Below, in pieces: positions 2,774 to 36,592 of a DNA stretch of 42,973 nt. The DNA comes from Kagunavirus LM08P1: the sequence record OZ035812.1; one strand, 5' to 3'. Under the pieces are notes generated by a model that was not told the origin of the DNA, made no database searches, and saw nothing but the letters and a program-made list of their open reading frames with translations. Position 1 is the stretch's first letter, and every line of letters begins with the position of its first letter. Position numbers and translations under genes: made by a program.

Positions 2774-2804
2774 AAGGCCCCGTTATGGGGCCTTATTTTT
2801 ATTT
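2774..2804. terminator. intrinsic terminator hairpin (bidirectional)
   Basis: GGCCCCG-TTAT-GGGGCC hairpin flanked by A-run upstream and T-run downstream, between convergent portal (+) and 2799..3083 (-). Confidence 0.6.
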
Positions 2805-3083
2805 CTTTCCTAATGCTTTCTTGATTGCTCTGTTGGCCCGATTTAATGGATGGTCTTCATGGCAATCATCAGAAGATACTGCACAAACATCCTCGACGTA
2901 ATCGCGAAGCTGGCGAAGTGCTTCAAGTAACTCGGGTGCCGAGGTGATAAGTTTTGCGTTAGCTAATTTTACGGAGTCCTTTTCCCGCATACTCATTACC
3001 TCGGCCACATAAACGTCCCCCGCCCAGATAGCTGTTCCGTGATTAACCCATGCGCCGTCTGTACCTTTAAATTTGTGTGTCAT
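2799..3083 (-). CDS. hypothetical protein (opposite-strand gene in head module; possibly Ead/Ea22-like, motif APELLEAL recalled from memory)
   Basis: 94 aa ORF on minus strand with RBS AGGAGG upstream of ATG at 3083; own promoter element at 3107..3139; terminator at its 3' end. Confidence 0.55.
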   Translation of the reverse strand: MTHKFKGTDGAWVNHGTAIWAGDVYVAEVMSMREKDSVKLANAKLITSAPELLEALRQLRDYVEDVCAVSSDDCHEDHPLNRANRAIKKALGKK

Positions 3084-3106
3084 TTTTAACCTCCTGTTTA
3101 AGTTAA

Positions 3107-3139
3107 CTGAATAGTACCCTATTATATTGGTGTCTGCAA
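3107..3139 (-). promoter_or_regulatory. sigma70-like promoter with palindromic operator-like core (family 1), minus-directed
   Basis: Minus strand reads TTGCAG-N17-TACTAT with TATAATAGGG inside spacer; core TGAATAG-N4-CTATT inverted repeat; sits 24 nt upstream of minus gene start 3083. Confidence 0.55.
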
Positions 3140-3183
3140 ATATTATTTTTATGCGTTACACTGGCGATACTACAGGAGGGCAC

Positions 3184-4227
3184 ATGAGCTTACTTACATC
3201 CCTAATCAGCCACCAGATATGGCTGCAACGCACCGCATCCGGTGAAGTGAAAGACCTTGCGCCGTTTCTTCAGGAAATGCGGGACGAAATCAAACGGCAG
3301 GTCCTGTTATTCGGTGACGACGGGCGAAGCACTGCGCGACTGAATAAACTGTTGCGCGACCTCGAAGAAGCACTAACCGGACTTACCGGTGACTGGCAAA
3401 CAAAGCTGACAGAAGACCTTAAGGAGCTGGCAGCGTATGAGGCTGAGTGGAACACAAAGACACTGGCCGCCAACGTAAATGCGGAATTTGTTACGCCTAC
3501 TGCCGAGCAAGTGTGGGCCGCCGCCGAGTTTCAACCCTTATCATTAAGCGACAAACCTGTCGATTTCACTAAGCTGATGGATGGCTGGGGTGAAACCGAA
3601 GTCGCGCGCCTGGTAACTGGCGTTAAGATGGGCTTTGTCCAAGGCCAGACGACACGGCAGATTGTTAAGAATGTTGTTGGCGCTGGTGGACTAGCCGACA
3701 TCTCAGAACGTAACGCGACTACGGTAATCCGCACCGCGCTGTCCCACGTATCCAACGAGGCCCGTAACGAGACGTACCGCCAGAACGACAACATCATCGA
3801 GAAGTACGAGTGGGTGTCAACGCTTGACAGCCGCACCAGTACGATTTGCAGGGTCAGAGACGGGATGACGTGGGAAATTGGTAAGGGGCCGATGCCCCCA
3901 GCCCATCCGAACTGCCGGTCGTGCACGGCTCCGGTAATCAGTTCCGAGTTCGACTTCCTCGATAAAGGCGCAAAACGCGCGGCTAAAGGAGCGGACGGCG
4001 GTACTCAGGTAAGCACGGACACCACCTATTACGAGTTCCTTAAACAACAACCGGCGTGGTTTCAGGACCAGGCGCTCGGCCCGGTGCGAGGTAAGATTTT
4101 CCGTAACAGCGGTATATCGCCGGAAGAGTTTCGCGTAATATCTGTAGATGGTTTCGGGAATCCGCTCACGCTTAAGCAGATGGCGGAACTCGATAAACGT
4201 GTTGCTGATTATCTGAAAGGGGAATAA
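3184..4227 (+). CDS. head morphogenesis / minor head protein (Mu F / SPP1 gp7-like)
   Basis: ORF frame 3127..4227; most likely start ATG 3184 preceded by AGGAGGG; C-terminal region with conserved Cys/His pattern (STICRVRDG...PPAHPNCRSC) recalled as Mu F-like; position after portal. Confidence 0.65.
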   Translation: MSLLTSLISHQIWLQRTASGEVKDLAPFLQEMRDEIKRQVLLFGDDGRSTARLNKLLRDLEEALTGLTGDWQTKLTEDLKELAAYEAEWNTKTLAANVNAEFVTPTAEQVWAAAEFQPLSLSDKPVDFTKLMDGWGETEVARLVTGVKMGFVQGQTTRQIVKNVVGAGGLADISERNATTVIRTALSHVSNEARNETYRQNDNIIEKYEWVSTLDSRTSTICRVRDGMTWEIGKGPMPPAHPNCRSCTAPVISSEFDFLDKGAKRAAKGADGGTQVSTDTTYYEFLKQQPAWFQDQALGPVRGKIFRNSGISPEEFRVISVDGFGNPLTLKQMAELDKRVADYLKGE

Positions 4228-4688
4228 TGATGGGCTTTTTCAAAGTAACTGATGTACCTTCACGTCGCGTAGTCCAGTACGCCCGCGTGTCTGGCTCTGG
4301 CGAGAACGTGACCTACGTTGAGGATGAAAGTGTACTGGGTGAACCCGTAGACGAGATGCCATATGCGGATAAAACCGGTATCGCGCTGACGGCGGCAGGT
4401 ATGCTCTATGAGATTCCGTATCTGGCAGATGCTGGCGACGTGTATTTCTCGGTACAACCGCGGGACACGGAACTGGCTGACGGCAGCGCAGCTATCACTG
4501 TCGAAGTTAAAGCGGGTAAAGCGCCATATACGCTGACCTGGTACAAAGACGGGAAGGAAGTGGTAAACGCCCCGGAAGAGGCTTTGTCCCTGACGGTTAA
4601 CGCGACCGGCGAATACTTCGTTAAAGTTACTGATGCCGATGGTGTAGAGGCGGTGAGTAAAGCGGCGAAGGTTACTAAGCCAGAATGA
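4227..4688 (+). CDS. Ig-like domain protein (possible capsid-associated)
   Basis: 153 aa; C-terminal segment with alternating beta-strand pattern PYTLTWYKDGKEV...GEYFVKVTDADG resembling Ig-like (I-set) domains; start overlaps previous stop (TAATG). Confidence 0.5.
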   Translation: MMGFFKVTDVPSRRVVQYARVSGSGENVTYVEDESVLGEPVDEMPYADKTGIALTAAGMLYEIPYLADAGDVYFSVQPRDTELADGSAAITVEVKAGKAPYTLTWYKDGKEVVNAPEEALSLTVNATGEYFVKVTDADGVEAVSKAAKVTKPE

Positions 4689-4691
4689 TAA

Positions 4692-4720
4692 GAGGCCCCA
4701 TAATGGGGCCTTAGATTTTT
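4692..4720 (+). terminator. intrinsic terminator hairpin
   Basis: GGCCCCA-TAA-TGGGGCC hairpin followed by T-rich run TTAGATTTTT. Confidence 0.55.
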
Positions 4721-5025
4721 CCTATTAGATTTTTAATTCTGTCGCGTTCTATTCTTTTCCCTTCTTCTACTCCCTCATTGAAGTATCTTTCTACATCATC
4801 CTTATTGACCTTACGAACTGCTGCGCCCTCTTTATATAGCTCTTGATTGTCGCGCAATACCTTAATCTTAGCGATTATTTCATTAAAAGGTGCGTCAGCA
4901 CGTATTTTGAGCATAGACCTTACCTGTTCTACGAACCATGCAAAATTAGGCTTTTTTGATAATTTCTCTCTTAAAACAGCGTTCTCTTGTTCCGCTTTTG
5001 TGGCGCGAGCACGATAATCAATCAT
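4711..5025 (-). CDS. hypothetical protein (opposite-strand, AT-rich gene in head module)
   Basis: 104 aa ORF on minus strand, lysine/glutamate rich; ATG at 5025; promoter element at 5063..5095; visibly more AT-rich than flanking structural genes. Confidence 0.55.
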   Translation of the reverse strand: MIDYRARATKAEQENAVLREKLSKKPNFAWFVEQVRSMLKIRADAPFNEIIAKIKVLRDNQELYKEGAAVRKVNKDDVERYFNEGVEEGKRIERDRIKNLIGKI

Positions 5026-5062
5026 TTTAGCAAACCTCTATCTTCATTAAACAGCACCAATA

Positions 5063-5095
5063 ACTGAATAGTACCCTATTATATCGGGGCATGTA
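5063..5095 (-). promoter_or_regulatory. sigma70-like promoter with palindromic operator-like core (family 1), minus-directed
   Basis: Minus strand reads TTACAT-N17-TACTAT with TATAATAGGG in spacer; nearly identical to elements at 3107, 14187, 36341, 37776. Confidence 0.55.
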
Positions 5096-5111
5096 AACTA
5101 TTTATTTACGT

Positions 5112-5162
5112 ATTCCAGTTATTCCACTCAATTGTAAATGTTGGAATAAACTATTCGAATAG
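5112..5162 (+). promoter_or_regulatory. cluster of GGAAT/ATTCC motifs and 12-bp palindrome CTATTCGAATAG immediately upstream of promoter
   Basis: ATTCC at 5112 and 5121, GGAAT at 5143, perfect palindrome CTATTCGAATAG 5151..5162 abutting the -35 hexamer at 5163. Confidence 0.35.
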
Positions 5163-5191
5163 TTGACTTTTCACTAAAAATGTGCTAAGCT
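5163..5191 (+). promoter_or_regulatory. sigma70-like promoter (TTGACT-N17-TAAGCT, extended -10 TG) driving structured RNA element A
   Basis: -35 TTGACT 5163..5168, 17-nt spacer, -10 TAAGCT 5186..5191 with TG two nt upstream; same hexamers and spacing at 36032..36060 while spacer sequence differs. Confidence 0.55.
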
Positions 5192-5197
5192 CCACCT

Positions 5198-5397
5198 GAG
5201 CTTGTGAAGTATGAACAAGCGACCGCGGCGCGGGCAGGTAACGGAGCGGGACGTAAGTCCTGAGTGTAGTTACGCTGACGCGTTCGGAAGGGCCATACTC
5301 TATTGCTTGTGTAAAAAGTAACTGGTTTACTGAGATTACGCCGTTTCTATGTTTAAATGATAAGGACTAGCGCCCCGCTTTATGGCGGGGCTTTACT
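5198..5397 (+). ncRNA. candidate structured noncoding RNA / leader element, copy A (unidentified family)
   Basis: About 200 nt between promoter and terminator hairpin (5371..5391 + T-run); shares conserved blocks with copy B (36067..36300) with hairpin-preserving substitutions; no reading frame conserved between copies. Confidence 0.5.
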
Positions 5398-5415
5398 TAT
5401 CGAGAAAGGAGAAAC

Positions 5416-5802
5416 ATGAATCTTAAAGCAACTGTCGTAGCAGGAGCATGTTTCATCATCCTGTTATACACGCACGGCTACTATCAATACCGCAGCGGCT
5501 GGAACGGAGGCAGGGCTAATCTAGTTTCGCAGCAACAGCAGAAAGCACAGGCTGAGTTAGCGAAGAAAACACAACGGCAGCAGCAGGACGAATCAAAGGC
5601 CGCCGCCGCTGACAACGAAGGCAAGACGAAATCAGAGGTGATTACCCGTGAAGTCGTTAAGTACATTAAAACGCCTGGCCGCAGCGTGTGCACTTTCGAC
5701 GATGCTCGCGTCCTGCTCAAGTCCCGCGCCGTCGCAAACGCCAATTCCATCCCCGGATACGACGATGATGCAGCCGCCGTGCAAACTGGCTCCGCCAAGT
5801 AG
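5416..5802 (+). CDS. putative inner-membrane spanin (Rz-like)
   Basis: 128 aa; N-terminal hydrophobic helix (VVAGACFIILLY), Q/K/A-rich predicted coiled region; contains overlapping out-of-frame lipoprotein ORF, the classic Rz/Rz1 architecture. Confidence 0.5.
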   Translation: MNLKATVVAGACFIILLYTHGYYQYRSGWNGGRANLVSQQQQKAQAELAKKTQRQQQDESKAAAADNEGKTKSEVITREVVKYIKTPGRSVCTFDDARVLLKSRAVANANSIPGYDDDAAAVQTGSAK

Positions 5803-5911
5803 CGACGCCGACGAGGATTTAGCTATCGACGTTCAGAACGCCGAATGCGTACGGCAACTGCGCCTGAAGGTGTTCATGTTGCAGGATTACGTGAGGAATA
5901 TTCTGGAATAG
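5648..5911 (+). CDS. putative outer-membrane lipoprotein spanin (Rz1-like), overlapping in +1 frame
   Basis: GTG start with RBS GAGGTGA; signal peptide ending in lipobox LASC; proline-rich mature region (SPAPSQTPIPSPD...QPPCKLAPP); starts inside 5416..5802 in a different frame and extends beyond it. Confidence 0.5.
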   Translation: MKSLSTLKRLAAACALSTMLASCSSPAPSQTPIPSPDTTMMQPPCKLAPPSSDADEDLAIDVQNAECVRQLRLKVFMLQDYVRNILE

Positions 5912-5993
5912 TTGCCTTGCATGTTGGAATAATTTATTCTTGACATGTAAATCCGGGTGGCCCGGATTCCAACGTCCAGGGGACATACTGACT

Positions 5994-6695
5994 ATGAATC
6001 GTTTTTTACGTTATCCGTTCCAGGAAGAAGCTGGAACAGAAGATAAATCCGGTGGCGGTGACGCGCCGAAAATGTTCACCGCTGAAGAAGTTCAGGCGCT
6101 GATTGAGAAAGAAGTTGCCGGGCTTAAGGCTAATCAGGAAGCATTGCTGGCAGAGAAGAAAGAAGCCGCCCGTAAAGCAAAAGAGGCTGAAGAAGAACGG
6201 CAGCGCGCGCACCAGGAGGCATTAAAAGCCGCCGGTAAGATGGACGAGTTCGAAAAAACGATTCGTAGCCAGTATGACCCGGTGTTAGCCGAGAAAGATG
6301 GCCGCATCTCCAGAATGGCGGAGCGCATCCTCGGCAGCGAACGTAAAGCGGTGTTAGGCTCTTTCGCAGGTGATTTCATCACACCGGAAGCAGTAGACAT
6401 TCTTGCTCCGTTCGTTAAGACTGAGTTCGAAGGCGATGACGTGGTTACTAAGTTTGTAGGCGCAGACGGCAATGTAATCACGACTGACCCGGAACAGTTC
6501 CGCAAATACCTGCGGGAACACAAAGCATTTTCGCATTTGATTAAAGCAAATGCAGCTTCCGGCGGCGGGGCTTCCGGTAGCAAAGGCGGCGGGGCCGCAC
6601 CAGCGTTTAAAGACATGAGTGAAGCGGAGCGTTTAGCTCTGTATAAATCGAACCCTGCCGAATTTGAACGGCAACTTAAAGCCCTGAGGAAATAA
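5994..6695 (+). CDS. scaffolding protein
   Basis: ORF frame opens at 5940 (TTG); first ATG at 5994; highly charged K/E/A-rich predicted coiled coil; directly precedes major capsid gene. Confidence 0.55.
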   Translation: MNRFLRYPFQEEAGTEDKSGGGDAPKMFTAEEVQALIEKEVAGLKANQEALLAEKKEAARKAKEAEEERQRAHQEALKAAGKMDEFEKTIRSQYDPVLAEKDGRISRMAERILGSERKAVLGSFAGDFITPEAVDILAPFVKTEFEGDDVVTKFVGADGNVITTDPEQFRKYLREHKAFSHLIKANAASGGGASGSKGGGAAPAFKDMSEAERLALYKSNPAEFERQLKALRK

Positions 6696-6697
6696 TA

Positions 6698-7747
6698 ATG
6701 GCAATTACCACTATCGGCGATATCGTAACTGGCAACATCCCGGTCCTGGCGTCTTATATGACCGAGGACCCGGTAGAAAAAACCGCGTTCTTCCAGTCTG
6801 GTATTCTGACCCCGACTCCATACGCTGCCGAGATTGCCCGCGGCCCGTCCAACGTCGCTAATATTCCTTTCTGGAAAGCGATTGATACTTCTATCGAGCC
6901 TAACTACTCGAACGACGTATACCAGGACATCGCCACCCCGCGTAACGTGCAGACCGGCGAGATGATGGCCCGCGTTGCATACCTGAACGAAGGCTTCGGA
7001 CAGGCGGACCTGACTGTCGAACTGACCAGCCAGAACCCGCTGCAATCCGTAGCGTCCCGTCTGGACAACTTCTGGCAGCGCCAGGCACAACGCCGTCTGA
7101 TTGCTACCGCGCTTGGTCTGTACAACGACAACGTAGCCGCTACCGACGCTTACCACGAGCAGAATGACATGGTAATCGACGTGTCTGCTACTCTGGGCTT
7201 CGATGCGGGCGCGTTCATCGACGCTACCCAGACTATGGGTGATGCGCTGATTGGCAACGGCGGTGAAGTGCTGGGTGCTATCGCGATGCACAGCTTCGTA
7301 TATGCGCAGGCCCGTAAGCAGCAGCTTATTGACTTCATCCGTGACGCTGACAACAACACCATGTTTGCCACCTACCAGGGCTACCGCGTGATTGTTGATG
7401 ACAGCATGACTGTAGTTGGCACCGGCTCAAGCCGTAAGTTCATCTCCATCATCTTCGGTAACGGCGCTATCGGTTACGGTGAAGGTAACCCGTCCAACCC
7501 GCTGGAATACGAGCGCGAAGCGTCTCGCGGTAACGGTGGTGGTGTCGAAACCCTGTGGACCCGTAAGACCTGGTTGCTGCACCCACTGGGCTACAGCTTC
7601 ACCAGCGCGGTAATCACCGGTAACGGCACCGAGACTATCGCACGTTCTGCTTCCTGGCAGGACCTGGCGAACGCCTCCAACTGGAACCGTGTGGTTGAAC
7701 GTAAGCACGTACCGATTGCCTTCCTGGTAACTGGTGTAGGTGCTTAA
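6698..7747 (+). CDS. major capsid protein
   Basis: 349 aa ORF with RBS GAGGAA; follows scaffold; followed by strong terminator; codon usage typical of highly expressed structural gene. Fold not verifiable here. Confidence 0.7.
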   Translation: MAITTIGDIVTGNIPVLASYMTEDPVEKTAFFQSGILTPTPYAAEIARGPSNVANIPFWKAIDTSIEPNYSNDVYQDIATPRNVQTGEMMARVAYLNEGFGQADLTVELTSQNPLQSVASRLDNFWQRQAQRRLIATALGLYNDNVAATDAYHEQNDMVIDVSATLGFDAGAFIDATQTMGDALIGNGGEVLGAIAMHSFVYAQARKQQLIDFIRDADNNTMFATYQGYRVIVDDSMTVVGTGSSRKFISIIFGNGAIGYGEGNPSNPLEYEREASRGNGGGVETLWTRKTWLLHPLGYSFTSAVITGNGTETIARSASWQDLANASNWNRVVERKHVPIAFLVTGVGA

Positions 7748-12156: not shown

Positions 12157-12184
12157 CTAAGGCCCCTTTCGGGGCCTTTTTCTT
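12157..12184. terminator. bidirectional intrinsic terminator
   Basis: AAGGCCCC-TTTC-GGGGCCTT hairpin with A-run upstream and T-run downstream; separates + major tail gene from - island; almost identical to terminator at 24206. Confidence 0.65.
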
Positions 12185-12413
12185 ACTCATCAATATTGCT
12201 TCGGTATTCCCGTAACTTCTCCAGACTTTCAATTGCTTCCGCTAAGTCGGTTCCGGTGTCCTTGTGTCCGCGCAAGCCCATGCACAATAGCTTCTTCAAT
12301 GCGTGCTGTAGCGCCGGGTCGCGTATATCGAAGGCGCGGAGCACATCATAAACGTCTACTGTCATAGTGCTGCCGTGAGTGTTTGTCATTGTGCGGTTGT
12401 ATTTTGAAGTCAT
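12183..12413 (-). CDS. hypothetical protein (island gene 4)
   Basis: 76 aa; start ATG 12413 overlaps stop of upstream gene (ATGA coupling). Confidence 0.5.
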   Translation of the reverse strand: MTSKYNRTMTNTHGSTMTVDVYDVLRAFDIRDPALQHALKKLLCMGLRGHKDTGTDLAEAIESLEKLREYRSNIDE

Positions 12414-12643
12414 AAATGGCTCTCATCTATAAGAACGATAACTGCCGAAATCGAAACGGCACCTACATATAAAAGACGCATCTCGGTCGGCGCTATAGCG
12501 GTAACAGCTTCGTACAGGCCCGAGAACACGGACAAATCCATAGAGATAAATGTTAAGACCGCCGCCATTCCTAGTACCGCGGTGGATAAAACCAGTAAAA
12601 CCACAACAGGCATTATGGCGAAAATCCACAAGGCTTTAATCAT
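12410..12643 (-). CDS. small membrane protein (two predicted TM helices)
   Basis: 77 aa, two long hydrophobic stretches; start ATG 12643 overlaps stop of metallophosphoesterase gene (ATGA). Confidence 0.5.
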   Translation of the reverse strand: MIKALWIFAIMPVVVLLVLSTAVLGMAAVLTFISMDLSVFSGLYEAVTAIAPTEMRLLYVGAVSISAVIVLIDESHL

Positions 12644-13770
12644 CCCAGCATCTCCGGTGAAATAGTTAAACGTGCGACCTCGCCATATTCGGCGCTATAA
12701 GTAATTACATTTGCGCTACGACCCGACATCCAGCCGCCTCTGGAGGCGTAGGCATCTTTAGCCGCCAGGGTGCGGTGTTGCTCAACAATCATGTTACGGC
12801 TTTCTACAATCTTCTGATGGTGCAGGTGGCCTACGTGGGCGTAACTGTAAACACTCTCGCCGAACGCTTTGCGGAACTTGGCAATCATAACCGGTTCGAT
12901 AGCGTCGAAGCGTGCTTTATGCCCGTGATGGAAGAACAGCGTCGTTTTGCCGTGTTGCACCATCTTGTAAACATCCGGCGACGTATCGACGAACACACGA
13001 GGCTCGTTGTCGTATAGCGTACTGAACATCTCAGCCAACCAAATCATTCCGCTTTCGTCATGATTCCCTTGCACGATAAGCAAGCGAACATTTTTATGCT
13101 TAACAAGGGCCATATCGACAACACGGCGCACCATACGAATCATGTAGCGGACGAGTTTCTGATAGCGGGTGTCAGCGTCAAGAACATGACCGCTTGCCGG
13201 TGTAACGGCGTCCAGACTATCGAAGTGCGCAAGGTCCCCCAGCAGACTAATAACTCCTGTTCCTGCGTCCGGCGCTTTCTGAAACGCCGCGTCGAACCAG
13301 CGTGAGAACAGGTCTTCCGCAATCTTCATATCCCAGTCGTCGCCGCTCTCGTCGGCCCAGGCCAGCATACCGAGATGGAAATCAGATACCGTGTAAAGAT
13401 TGAGTAGCTTGTCGTCACGTTTGGCGCGAACGGCTTTAACAGGTGCAACTGGCGTAATCTCTGACTTCATGCCTTCGATCACGGCTTTCATCAATTCAAC
13501 CTGACGTTCAGCGTCAGTGTCAGTCTTAACCCATTGCAGTTTAGTGTTGCCAAACTCATCGACAAGGGATGACGTTCCTTTAATCTTGTAGCCATCTGGC
13601 ACAAGGTGGCTAACGTCGCGCCCGTGGCCTACACCTTTCTTTGCCAGCTTCGCTTTGCGGATGCGAATAACGCGGTCTGAGATGCCATATTTACGAGCTA
13701 TATCGATAGTTTTAACTCCGGCGTTCAATTCTTCCTGTAACTGTTCGTCGGTTATTTTCTTCCGGGCCAT
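12640..13770 (-). CDS. HTH domain fused to calcineurin-like metallophosphoesterase
   Basis: 376 aa; N-terminal HTH-like segment (TIDIARKYGISDRVIRIRKAKL); metallophosphoesterase signature motifs in order: DFH, GDLAHFD, GNHDE, HHGH, GHLHH; RBS GAGGAAG. Confidence 0.75.
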   Translation of the reverse strand: MARKKITDEQLQEELNAGVKTIDIARKYGISDRVIRIRKAKLAKKGVGHGRDVSHLVPDGYKIKGTSSLVDEFGNTKLQWVKTDTDAERQVELMKAVIEGMKSEITPVAPVKAVRAKRDDKLLNLYTVSDFHLGMLAWADESGDDWDMKIAEDLFSRWFDAAFQKAPDAGTGVISLLGDLAHFDSLDAVTPASGHVLDADTRYQKLVRYMIRMVRRVVDMALVKHKNVRLLIVQGNHDESGMIWLAEMFSTLYDNEPRVFVDTSPDVYKMVQHGKTTLFFHHGHKARFDAIEPVMIAKFRKAFGESVYSYAHVGHLHHQKIVESRNMIVEQHRTLAAKDAYASRGGWMSGRSANVITYSAEYGEVARLTISPEMLG

Positions 13771-13835
13771 GCTTACTTCCTCGTGTTTAGGATTTGTCCT
13801 ATTTAACCACAGTGGATTCCTTTAAATAAAGGCAA

Positions 13836-14162
13836 CTATTTACTTTCTGCGCCTATCGCCCACCCTGTCATTACCATTTGCAGACGGGTGGCTGTCAGCA
13901 GGCTATAGAAAGCATCTCCGTTTTTCTCTACAGAACGTATTACCGTGTATGTTACGGCTTGCGGAGGCAGGCCCGATTTACCAACCTCTACGGCTGCCTC
14001 ACACTCGCGAACGGTAGAGTCCTTAAATGCCTTTACAATAGTAGGGTCGGCTCTATCAAGCACACCAGAAGTCATAAGAACGGATTCACTAAACACCTGT
14101 TCACACGGAGACCCAAAAGTAGCAAAAGACATAAAACCAAGAGCTAACACTAATTTACGCAT
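13836..14162 (-). CDS. secreted/periplasmic hypothetical protein
   Basis: 108 aa with N-terminal signal-peptide-like segment MRKLVLALGFMSFATFG; RBS GAGGAAA; first gene downstream of promoter 14187..14220. Confidence 0.5.
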   Translation of the reverse strand: MRKLVLALGFMSFATFGSPCEQVFSESVLMTSGVLDRADPTIVKAFKDSTVRECEAAVEVGKSGLPPQAVTYTVIRSVEKNGDAFYSLLTATRLQMVMTGWAIGAESK

Positions 14163-14186
14163 AATTATTTCCTCAGTAAGTTACAG

Positions 14187-14220
14187 GTGAATAGTACCCT
14201 ATTATATTGGGGTGTGCAAG
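14187..14220 (-). promoter_or_regulatory. sigma70-like promoter with palindromic operator-like core (family 1), minus-directed
   Basis: Minus strand reads TTGCAC-N17-TACTAT with TATAATAGGG in spacer; 31 of 33 positions identical to plus-strand element at 36341..36373. Confidence 0.55.
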
Positions 14221-24205: not shown

Positions 24206-24232
24206 CTAAGGCCCCATTTGGGGCCTTTTCTC
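24206..24232. terminator. bidirectional intrinsic terminator
   Basis: AAGGCCCC-ATTT-GGGGCCTT hairpin with T-run; lies between convergent tail (+) and replication (-) blocks. Confidence 0.65.
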
Positions 24233-29958: not shown

Positions 29959-29988
29959 AATATAATAGCTAACTATTCAGGTGTCAAC
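29959..29988 (-). promoter_or_regulatory. sigma70 promoter (TTGACA-N17-TATATT) with palindromic core (family 2), minus-directed
   Basis: Minus strand reads TTGACA cctgaatagttagctat TATATT; core TGAATAG-N4-CTATT; upstream of start 29905. Confidence 0.55.
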
Positions 29989-30235
29989 CCTTCCAGCCAG
30001 TTATTTTCTCAACTATCTCAATATACTTGTTGGGCCATTTCATGTTGTTTATGAATCGAAGCGCCTGTGTCTTCCACGATTTATCGCTCAGGATAGCTTC
30101 GATGTCGCGAGTTTGTGTTATACATACCGTAATACACATTAAGATAAATGTTGGTAGCGTTAGTGGCATCATAAGAACCCAGAAAACAATACACGCTATA
30201 AGCCCACCAAAAATCCTGAACGTTTTACGAATCAT
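29984..30235 (-). CDS. small membrane protein (two predicted TM helices)
   Basis: ORF frame to 30265 (GTG); ATG 30235 with AGGAGG 7 nt upstream and ATGA overlap with upstream nuclease gene. Confidence 0.5.
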   Translation of the reverse strand: MIRKTFRIFGGLIACIVFWVLMMPLTLPTFILMCITVCITQTRDIEAILSDKSWKTQALRFINNMKWPNKYIEIVEKITGWKG

Positions 30236-32815: not shown

Positions 32816-32845
32816 ACTATAATAGCGAACTATTCATGTTGTCAA
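32816..32845 (-). promoter_or_regulatory. sigma70 promoter (TTGACA-N18-TATAGT) with palindromic core (family 2), minus-directed
   Basis: Minus strand reads TTGACA acatgaatagttcgctat TATAGT; core TGAATAG-N4-CTATT; divergent from HTH regulator gene. Confidence 0.55.
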
Positions 32846-32861
32846 TGGGCTTTCCTAAAAT

Positions 32862-32890
32862 AATTAATATGGTACTATTCACATATAAAC
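32862..32890 (+). promoter_or_regulatory. candidate plus-directed promoter/operator upstream of HTH regulator gene
   Basis: TAATATGG-TACTATTCA resembles family-1 core (TACTAT -10) but -35 is weak; 20 nt upstream of RBS AAGGAG of 32910..33125. Confidence 0.35.
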
Positions 32891-32909: not shown

Positions 32910-33125
32910 ATGCAACCATCTGAACTAGGCATCCGCGTAGAACAACGCCGCAAAGAACTAGGCATCTCTCAGCGCCGTCTGGCGGTTTTGGCTGGCGTTT
33001 CCCAGGGCGCGATTAACCAGCTGGCACTCGGCGTAACTCAGGACGTCCGCCCGGCGACGCTGTTTAAACTGGCGGAAGTGCTGGAAGTAGACGCCAAGTG
33101 GCTGGCGTTCGGTGAAGGGGCTTAA
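32910..33125 (+). CDS. XRE-family helix-turn-helix transcriptional regulator (Cro/CI-like)
   Basis: 71 aa; classic HTH segment ISQRRLAVLAGVSQGAINQLALG; lone plus-strand gene between two minus-strand operons. Confidence 0.8.
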   Translation: MQPSELGIRVEQRRKELGISQRRLAVLAGVSQGAINQLALGVTQDVRPATLFKLAEVLEVDAKWLAFGEGA

Positions 33126-35468: not shown

Positions 35469-35759
35469 TTATCTATTAGCCAGACATTCCATCAAATGCG
35501 CGTACTTACGATAATAATCTACGACAATCTCATCACCGAAATACTGATAAACGTACGCTAAGTGGTCAGAGACATCGATGGAAGCCGACATTGTGCTGAG
35601 TCTTCGGAGACTAATCAACTGTAATTCTTCTGTAACGCAAAACGGTGAATAAGAGTCCAGCTTACAAGAAACGTTAAAGCACAACGCATATTCGCCTTGC
35701 ACTAAATAAACCATATAAGCACTGTCATTTTCTTTATCGTGGAAAATTACACCTTTCAT
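35469..35759 (-). CDS. hypothetical protein
   Basis: 96 aa; ATGA overlap with upstream HTH gene. Confidence 0.45.
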   Translation of the reverse strand: MKGVIFHDKENDSAYMVYLVQGEYALCFNVSCKLDSYSPFCVTEELQLISLRRLSTMSASIDVSDHLAYVYQYFGDEIVVDYYRKYAHLMECLANR

Positions 35760-35926
35760 TTCACGTTCTCCTTAATCCACGCCTCAACTTTATTACGGTC
35801 AAATGTACCAGGTAAACGGCGACCCATTACTTTAACGCTGCAATCAGGAAACTTTCCACTCTTAATCCAGTTATTGATTGTCTGGCGGGTGACTCCGATT
35901 AATTCTGCAACTTCATTGATAGTCAT
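35756..35926 (-). CDS. small HTH DNA-binding protein (AlpA/excisionase-like fold, putative transcription regulator)
   Basis: ORF frame to 36016; ATG 35926 with RBS AGGAGA; HTH segment INEVAELIGVTRQTINNWIKSG. Confidence 0.6.
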   Translation of the reverse strand: MTINEVAELIGVTRQTINNWIKSGKFPDCSVKVMGRRLPGTFDRNKVEAWIKENVK

Positions 35927-35955
35927 TTCGCGCTCTCCTGTGTAAGATGTATCGA

Positions 35956-35984
35956 AGTATAAGGCGGTAACTTTGTAAAAGCAA
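35956..35984 (-). promoter_or_regulatory. candidate sigma70 promoter (TTGCTT-N17-TATACT), minus-directed
   Basis: Read on minus strand upstream of HTH gene start 35926. Confidence 0.4.
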
Positions 35985-36031
35985 CCAAAACTGAACACAA
36001 AGTTACTAAGATACAAAAGATGCTACTGGTA

Positions 36032-36060
36032 TTGACTTTTACTTAAAAATATGCTAAGCT
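36032..36060 (+). promoter_or_regulatory. sigma70-like promoter (TTGACT-N17-TAAGCT, extended -10 TG) driving structured RNA element B
   Basis: Hexamers identical to 5163..5191 with same spacing but diverged spacer. Confidence 0.55.
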
Positions 36061-36066
36061 TCACTG

Positions 36067-36300
36067 AGCTTGTGAGATATCGCAAGCGACCGCGGAGCGG
36101 CAGGGAACGCAACGCGTGCCATTAGGCACTTGAGTGTAGTTCCGCTGGCGCTTTCGGAAGGGCCAAAGTCTATTGTTAATCCCGCCTAAATACCCAAGTC
36201 ACTGATAATTAAAAGTTTCTATAGTTGCCGTAAGCAAGGTGGAGAGTACTTCACTCCGCTGGGGTGGGCTAACGCCCACCCACTGCGTTGCGTACTCTTT
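36067..36300 (+). ncRNA. candidate structured noncoding RNA / leader element, copy B (unidentified family)
   Basis: Shares conserved sequence blocks with copy A; compensatory hairpin differences; ends in long hairpin (36242..36296) followed by CTTTT; no conserved ORF. Confidence 0.5.
36242..36300 (+). terminator. terminator-like long hairpin closing RNA element B
   Basis: GAGAGTAC...GTGGGC-TAAC-GCCCAC...GTACTCT followed by TTTTAAG. Confidence 0.45.
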
Positions 36301-36394: not shown

Positions 36395-36592
36395 GTGAGG
36401 GTTATGTTTAAACGTGGTCAGTTGGTTAAAGCTGTAAATAGCAATTATTTCATTGTTGAAAGCGAGTCTGCAGTTTTTCCGGGGGCTTATAGGGTAAGTT
36501 TTCTCGGGGAAAGATTAGGAGCAATAACCTGGTTCCGTGGAGATGAGCTAACACTCATCGGCAACAATTTTAAATTCAAAGGGGCGAAGTGA
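36395..36592 (+). CDS. hypothetical early protein
   Basis: 65 aa; strong RBS; first gene after promoter. Confidence 0.5.
   Translation: MRVMFKRGQLVKAVNSNYFIVESESAVFPGAYRVSFLGERLGAITWFRGDELTLIGNNFKFKGAK

Follow-up and report, generated by a model that had tools for sequence, protein, structure and literature searches.

A probable mobile accessory cassette lies antisense to the late genes in the structural module of Kagunavirus LM08P1

How does a small, AT-rich gene come to lie on the opposite strand between two late structural genes of a virulent phage, and what might it do there? The question is raised by a 104-amino-acid (aa) open reading frame (ORF) on the minus strand at 4711..5025 of the genome of Kagunavirus LM08P1 (OZ035812.1), an Escherichia coli siphophage of the Guernseyvirinae; the whole 42,973-nucleotide (nt) genome is referred to here as the window. 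The structural module runs in the order terminase, portal, MuF-like head morphogenesis, Hoc-like decoration, spanins, scaffold and major capsid, and the portal–MuF gap and the Hoc-side gap, which holds the 104-aa gene, are named slot 1 and slot 2, respectively. An initial annotation of this DNA had described a Lys/Glu-rich ORF with a promoter of its own, a terminator at the other end and a base composition suggestive of horizontal acquisition, and had proposed checks by sliding-window G+C content (GC), homology search and presence/absence analysis in related genomes. The analysis presented here indicates that 4711..5025 is a real, dispensable accessory gene in a hypervariable intergenic slot, and that it is in all probability the cargo of a mobile cassette acquired by recombination.

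The ORF was present as described, with an ATG start and a product beginning MIDYRARATKAEQENAVLREKL, and its surroundings (4692-5110, ~420 bp) have the layout of a self-contained transcription cassette, comprising a putative promoter, a leader with a ribosome-binding site (RBS), the 104 codons and a stop codon abutting a hairpin (Table 1). The promoter previously placed at 5063..5095 corresponds to a TTTACA-18-TACTAT match at 5097-5068, which lies on the minus strand and was the sole sigma70-like match found in 4000-6000. At the other end, where a terminator had been claimed, the TAA stop codon (4713-4711) abuts a G+C-rich hairpin with a terminator-like score on both strands, better on the plus than on the minus strand. 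The leader is unlike that common to most other cassettes of this kind, and is conserved, together with the RBS and start codon, in the copy of the gene on the Kagunavirus contig L063. The higher AT content relative to the flanking genes also held on quantification, with GC values in 300-nt windows of 0.39-0.41 over the ORF vs 0.52-0.57 in the flanks. Both GC (0.378) and GC at third codon positions (GC3, 0.324) were the minimum among 69 non-overlapping ORFs, each approximately 2.6 standard deviations (sd) below the reference (GC mean 0.497, sd 0.046; GC3 mean 0.524, sd 0.078). Every cassette in slot 2 was AT-rich (GC 0.38-0.46 vs 0.50-0.53 for the loci), and AT-richness is a general trait of the cassettes of this slot, not special to the 4711..5025 gene.

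The distribution of the gene among relatives differed sharply from that of its surroundings. Region 3000-7000 of the window was matched in 486 phage records, with Escherichia phage AV104 on top (96.3%), and the DNA of the ORF (4690-5060) was found in a single one of 50,697 phage records, again AV104 (99.5%). The adjacent 360 bp (5061-5420) were found in 180 Kagunavirus/Jerseyvirus records, nearly all at 95-99% identity. For the slot survey, 45 IMG/VR relatives were retrieved via the Hoc-like protein, and the interval from the Hoc terminator to the conserved right flank was mapped in the 40 relatives with both anchors (38 IMG/VR loci, AV104 and Bas76). Slot 2 was empty in nine of these 40 loci, in which the hairpin is followed after 13-15 nt by sequence equivalent to window 5111 onward, with the promoter segment (5061-5110) absent too; some genomes thus have the gene while close relatives lack it precisely at the corresponding intergenic site, as is typical of morons. 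All non-empty loci carried a minus-strand gene behind the same promoter, and the cargos fell into at least 14 unrelated families of 37-246 aa (at least 13 besides the window gene), including an N6/N4 DNA methyltransferase, a 173-aa PHROG-3007/clamp-like protein, an endonuclease-VII-like protein, a lipoprotein and a small membrane protein. The hairpin of the empty slots differs (AGCCCC-GAAA-GGGGCT), and three relatives (L006, L017 and L036, at ~3460-3490) possess chimeric hairpins with one cassette-type arm (GGCCCC) and one of the empty-slot type (GGGGCT), which look like the footprints of crossovers within the hairpin. The proposed horizontal acquisition is supported by a compositional outlier found in one of 50,697 records, a slot that is empty or differently filled among the 40 relatives, and homologs in unrelated phages.

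Comparison of slots revealed where the exchange may have taken place. A protein 90% identical to that of the window (P0002) is encoded antisense in the portal–MuF slot of L063, and the two DNAs share ~92% identity from the promoter core through the leader and ORF to the first hairpin arm. Homology stops in the hairpin loop at one end and within the promoter core at the other, the -35 side and the far hairpin side being slot-specific, and the sequence upstream in L063 matches the slot-1 promoter of the window. Conversely, the slot-1 gene of the window (2799-3083) is 90% identical to the slot-2 occupant of L032 and L034 (3486-3860), leader and promoter DNA included, with breakpoints likewise within the promoter core and hairpin, and the portal–MuF slot of L032 and L034 is empty. 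Across the relatives, this slot was empty in 27 and held 234-1422 bp in 13, compared with 370 bp in the window. Moreover, homologs with 63-65% identity occupy a third slot, antisense between the o-spanin and scaffold genes, in the distant 45-46-kb relatives L050, L052 and L053, each with its own TTGACA promoter and terminator. The same gene is found in three slots, and unrelated genes in one slot, because crossovers appear to fall in the ~20-bp promoter core and the hairpin; travel of cargos between slots by such crossovers is accordingly judged probable, as a part of the cassette reading as a whole. The BASEL paper reports nothing on these slots. As a side observation on the third slot, the stop codon of the L050 homolog (4300-4325) lies in the loop of a bidirectional hairpin, the last residues K-A-P being encoded by the stem, and the L053 ORF (1520-1545) ends a few nt ahead of a bidirectional terminator hairpin, so that the cargo in both appears to be fused flush to the backbone terminator.

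The signals at both ends of the cassette are repeated in the window. The promoter core ATATAATAGGGTACTATTCA has eight copies at ≤3 mismatches, five of which have a TTGCAc/TTTACA -35 hexamer spaced 17-18 nt from TACTAT (3116(-), 5073(-), 14196(-), 36364(+) and 37800(+)), and the hairpin type GGCCCC-N3-6-GGGGCC has four (2776, 4694, 12161 and 24210), with 0 expected from 100 shuffles. All three antisense units, i.e., the 104-aa gene, its slot-1 sister cassette and the unit with ORFs at 12183-14162, carry this hairpin type at the 3' end and this promoter at the 5' end. The initial annotation had grouped the same three as early-promoter cassettes antisense to the late operon, and the grouping stands on the shared promoter and hairpin families, while the early timing is a deduction. 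This promoter type also stands at the head of the small-ORF block (36.4-42 kb), the exonuclease island and a helix-turn-helix (HTH) regulator gene. The exonuclease island is the third antisense unit, which encodes a 376-aa DNA-repair exonuclease (PHROG 704, E 4e-166). A 76-aa ORF of the same unit matches just the C-terminal part of 235-246-aa ATPase-type PHROGs (2452 and 17613), and may be a truncated or split gene. In addition, the fourth GGCCCC hairpin (24210-24225) is situated at a convergent junction between the plus-strand tail genes (end 24203) and the minus-strand replication genes (24232 onward). A motif copy at 29960-29979(+) was considered as the start of a fourth cassette and rejected, as it lacks a recognisable -35 and overlaps a stop codon, that of a small membrane-protein ORF on the minus strand (~29984-30235); the site may serve as an operator alone.

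Regarding the polymerase and the control of these promoters, ATATAATAGGGTACTATTCA is the reverse complement of the PHIRE motif tgAATAGTa-ccTATTat-T of Kagunavirus fBC-Eco01, which occurs there in seven copies and was assigned to a phage RNA polymerase (PMC9825357). This assignment was rejected: among the large ORFs of the window, which encode a DNA polymerase, a helicase-primase, an exonuclease and a helicase, no RNA polymerase is evident. Two tandem inverted repeats of the promoter core, AATAGCGAACTATT and AATATGGTACTATT (32817-32882), precede a 71-aa HTH (Cro/CI-like) gene at 32910-33125(+). Because of this tandem arrangement ahead of a regulator gene, the core inverted repeat AATAG-N4/5-CTATT is a candidate operator, and the 71-aa protein may act as an autoregulator and as the repressor of all promoters of this family, including that of the cassette.

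The homology search proposed for the 104-aa protein returned matches to PHROG 10768 (E 6.9e-18, residues 3-61) and PHROG 16432 (E 5.1e-15, residues 2-66), neither of which has an assigned function. Homologs matched at E 1e-33 to 1e-15, 19 of them from an exhaustive search of 1.84 billion representatives, and a profile search of 5.8 billion proteins yielded 54 clusters, all unnamed, without Pfam domains and with no informative fusion partners. The family was absent from GTDB representatives (185,579 species), 5,426 E. coli genomes and 72,556 PLSDB plasmids, and is phage-only in distribution. Members of the two PHROGs (RB43 ORF126c, RB16 D9ICH8, Fifi067_00078, KpV79 gp60, Geezett_064 and Merlin286) are 44-51% identical to the window protein, with which they have in common a ~60-aa N-terminal three-helix domain carrying an invariant YRxRATxAEQ helix (Y4-R5-x-R7-A8-x-x-A11-E12-Q13). 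Most of these relatives are the bare 63-76-aa domain or have other extensions, whereas the window protein has a long C-terminal helix (residues 75-103), as do its relatives from Guernseyvirinae, N4-like phages and 60-kb siphoviruses. Across 22 sequences, Y4, R5, R7, A8, A11, E12, Q13, L39 and L57 were invariant, and AlphaFold predicted helices at residues 2-23, 29-38, 47-71 and 75-103 (mean predicted local distance difference test (pLDDT) score 83). The ratio of nonsynonymous to synonymous divergence (dN/dS) was 0.33 between the window and L063 and 0.14 between L050 and L053, and distant pairs had proportions of synonymous (pS) and nonsynonymous (pN) differences of 0.85-0.96 and 0.26-0.30, respectively; the low dN/dS despite saturated synonymous sites shows the ORF to be under purifying selection.

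Homologs of the protein occur in the early small-gene arrays of unrelated virulent phage families, in a co-directional arrangement in Fifi067, RB43, KpV79 and VLCpiS10a. In the N4-like Erwinia phage Fifi067 the homolog lies upstream of RNA polymerase genes, in RB43 it adjoins a Dcm methylase gene, in the Jedunavirus KpV79 it is the first gene after a divergent promoter, and a further homolog is carried by VLCpiS10a, a 60-kb Klebsiella siphovirus. On the N4-like contigs L064 (972-1178) and L070 (3311-3499), the homolog is located directly beside a homolog of N4_GP8 (PF25713). N4 gp8, the early N4 protein inhibiting the host clamp loader, places the 104-aa family by its neighbourhood among host-takeover genes.

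Taken together, the locus is explained with good confidence by a mobile accessory cassette that occupies one of the several hypervariable intergenic gaps of the Guernseyvirinae structural module, would be transcribed against the late genes, and would have arrived by recombination with crossovers in the ~20-bp promoter core and the hairpin. A different history, in which the gene is ancestral to the backbone and was lost in most relatives, its AT-richness reflecting a general bias of small early genes, accommodates the composition, since other small ORFs of the window are AT-rich too (e.g., 35469-36016 and 36395-36592, GC 0.39-0.42), as is every cassette in the slot. It is nevertheless very unlikely, given that only one of the 486 deposited relatives has the gene, that the slot is either vacant or occupied by one of at least 13 other, unrelated genes, that copies of the gene occur in three slots and have their breakpoints in the flanking repeats, and that its nearest homologs outside the Guernseyvirinae belong to unrelated phage families. 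The cassette might also matter as a transcription unit, with a convergent promoter and bidirectional terminator that insulate or attenuate the late operon while the ORF is incidental; the retention of the hairpin in empty slots, the far better conservation of promoter and hairpin than of cargo, and the convergence of cassette transcription on the Hoc gene speak for this, yet the purifying selection on the ORF over saturated synonymous divergence, the conservation of the protein in other phage families with co-directional arrangement, and the nine relatives that manage without any cassette in the slot leave it very little credence. That the ORF is a spurious frame in an AT-rich spacer, as its annotation as merely a 'hypothetical protein' without a Pfam domain might allow, is already refuted by conservation: the PHROG matches (E 7e-18 and 5e-15) and 54 homologous clusters, a dN/dS well below 1, the RBS and start codon kept in L063 and the confidently predicted helices (mean pLDDT 83) all count against it.

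As to how the accessory cassette would work, host RNA polymerase is expected to fire its promoter early, the transcript would end at the hairpin, and the small, predicted all-helical product may bind a target via its invariant N-terminal helix. The product is tentatively regarded as an early host-directed factor (takeover or anti-defence) with a target conserved in Enterobacterales, a possible rather than a probable assignment. It is preferred to a phage-internal role because the gene is dispensable and has spread to phages whose transcription programmes are unrelated, and because the other cargos of its slot include a DNA methylase and membrane proteins. A role inside the phage, as a regulator or as a nucleoid-type DNA binder (for example a small dimeric helical factor modulating phage transcription or replication), is correspondingly considered rather unlikely. 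Several results weigh against the proposed cassette and its host-directed product. The U-tract on the hairpin's minus-strand side is poor (CTTATCATTC), which may make this a leaky terminator for the cassette transcript, and both the activity and the timing of the promoter are deduced from sequence. The predicted template modelling (pTM) scores of the protein models were only 0.40-0.46; neither the protein nor longer members of its family matched a Pfam, NCBIfam or PADLOC entry, a profile search of PDB sequences gave chance helical matches alone (E >0.4), and Foldseek found no match in the PDB and the protein's own family alone in BFVD, with otherwise generic helical matches. Rarity (one of 486 deposited relatives) is also compatible with a nearly neutral passenger. 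The transcriptome of Kagunavirus K1B4, in which the slot holds a different occupant and whose record is unannotated, covers 57 genes in coarse classes and therefore yields no timing for the 104-aa gene (PMC12645636).

Exchangeable phage genes with their own expression signals have two known counterparts. Morons of lambdoid phages, reportedly described by Juhala et al. and by Hendrix et al. in 2000, belong classically to temperate phages, where they usually share the orientation of the late operon; their expression from the prophage leads to lysogenic conversion. The cassette resembles them in being an extra gene between two late structural genes, absent in close relatives, with a promoter and terminator of its own (recognised at the sequence level) and a distinct base composition. 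Unlike morons, it is antisense and resides in a virulent phage, its promoter is repeated through the early region of the phage, and it moves between defined slots via flanking repeats. Neither prophage expression nor lysogenic conversion is indicated, as Kagunaviruses are reported to lack lysogeny genes (PMC7203180; PMC9825357) and the family is absent from the bacterial genomes and plasmids searched.

The other counterpart is provided by the PeSL (early promoter and stem-loop) cassettes of T4-type phages, in which repeated sigma70-like early promoters and G/C-rich stem-loop terminators flank ORFans, mark indels or replacements between close relatives, and have been proposed as sites of recombination through which a gene would move along with its expression signals (PMC2839356; PMC4122927). 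The window likewise has a repeated sigma70-like promoter, motifs flanking ORFans that differ between close relatives, and breakpoints inside these motifs. In a PeSL, however, promoter and stem-loop form a compact composite, the stem-loop lying within the promoter or adjoining it, and the hyperplastic regions of large myoviruses carry these composites as tandem co-directional arrays, whereas the promoter and bidirectional hairpin here stand at opposite ends of single antisense cassettes in a 43-kb siphovirus, within its head/tail module, and a variant hairpin alone is kept at empty sites. The compact composite is therefore lacking, because the hairpin sits at the end of the cargo opposite the promoter, but the exchange itself appears to be moron-like and PeSL-like cassette shuffling. 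A bolder and, as a whole, rather improbable picture is that of a PeSL-like 'plug-in' system of the Guernseyvirinae, in which AT-rich early genes would hop, on cassettes bounded by promoter and hairpin, between slots and to and from unrelated virulent enterobacterial phages, a conserved two-copy RNA beside slot 2 (described below) would render late transcription resistant to terminators in the manner of put RNA, so that the long structural operons tolerate the strong bidirectional terminators of the cassettes, and the 104-aa protein would be a new anti-defence or takeover effector whose YRxRATxAEQ helix binds a conserved Enterobacterales target.

Table 1. Coordinates of the slot-2 cassette, its neighbours and related elements in the window
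Feature	Coordinates	Strand	Details
Sister cassette, portal–MuF slot	2774..3139	-	hairpin 2774-2794; ORF 2799-3083 (PHROG 1273); promoter core 3108-3127; -35 3139-3134
Hoc-like (Ig-like) head decoration gene	4227..4688	+	left backbone neighbour of the slot; PHROG 3945, E 3e-85; weak Pfam Ig matches
G+C-rich bidirectional hairpin terminator	4692..4712		GAGGCCCC-ATAA-TGGGGCCTT; left cassette boundary and putative left recombination point
104-aa accessory gene	4711..5025	-	ATG start; PHROG 10768/16432; predicted all-alpha; Lys/Glu-rich
5' leader, cassette-specific, ~36 nt	5026..5060	-	RBS AGAGG 5039-5035, 9 nt ahead of the ATG
Putative cassette promoter	5061..5110	-	-35 TTTACA 5097-5092; spacer 18; -10 TACTAT 5073-5068; core ATATAATAGGGTACTATTCA 5084-5065
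Backbone control region, right of the slot	5111..5162		TATTCCA/TGGAATA repeats; 12-bp perfect palindrome CTATTCGAATAG (5151-5162)
Conserved non-coding element	5163..5400	+	promoter TTGACT (5163-5168)-17-TGcTAAGCT (5186-5191); ~190-nt structured RNA; strong intrinsic terminator 5372-5391
Third antisense unit	12159..14219	-	hairpin 12159-12178; four ORFs 12183-14162; promoter core 14188-14207; -35 14219-14214
Paralogous second copy of the non-coding element	36029..36222	+	same promoter and structured RNA; nhmmer E 4.8e-20; upstream of the early small-ORF block

Both neighbours of slot 2 belong to the backbone. On the left lies the Hoc-like gene, annotated in relatives as Hoc-like or fibritin; on the right, beyond the backbone control region, lies a conserved non-coding element directly upstream of the spanin gene (ATG 5416). 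This element was 95-99% identical in nearly all of the ~180 Kagunavirus/Jerseyvirus records, compared with 85-92% for the end of the Hoc gene, and an Rfam search with both of its copies in the window gave no credible match. A consensus fold from seven sequences comprised 39 pairs, five of them with double compensatory changes, and 93% of cells were paired vs 33-41% with the partners slid, although minimum-free-energy folds of the RNA from distant relatives were in no obvious agreement. A 36-aa ORF annotated here in the BASEL phage Bas76 (Bas76_0007; window 5211-5321) is probably not a gene, as L063, L040 and the paralogous copy have lost its ATG but keep the RNA stems. The ATTCCAGTTATTCCAC repeats upstream of the RNA promoter are kept even in the distant L050 (5180-5245, minus strand), whose promoter hexamers are weak (TGGACT/TAACCT), which suggests that the repeats are activator sites of a regulated, possibly late, promoter.

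The putL and putR elements of phage HK022, cis-acting antiterminator RNAs of ~70 nt occurring twice per genome (PMC9378689), offer a possible parallel. The present element resembles them in architecture alone, with two paralogous, promoter-proximal copies ahead of terminators at the heads of long operons, and differs in its ~120-nt core vs ~70 nt and in having no sequence or Rfam similarity; it could be a put-like cis antiterminator or a small RNA. No plus-strand promoter was found in the portal–MuF interval, and on the hypothesis that the element is an antiterminator, the tolerance of terminator-bounded cassettes in that interval would be explained. The conserved RNA next to slot 2 may be a weightier lead than the 104-aa gene itself.

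Overall, the locus constitutes an unusually clean natural experiment on accessory-gene exchange in small virulent phages, and broadens the PeSL idea, formed on T4-type myoviruses, to include 43-kb siphoviruses, which are under development for therapy and as synthetic-biology chassis. The slots mark safe insertion sites with ready-made expression signals, and their occupants provide a short list of dispensable early genes, the 104-aa family included, to screen for anti-defence or host-takeover activity.

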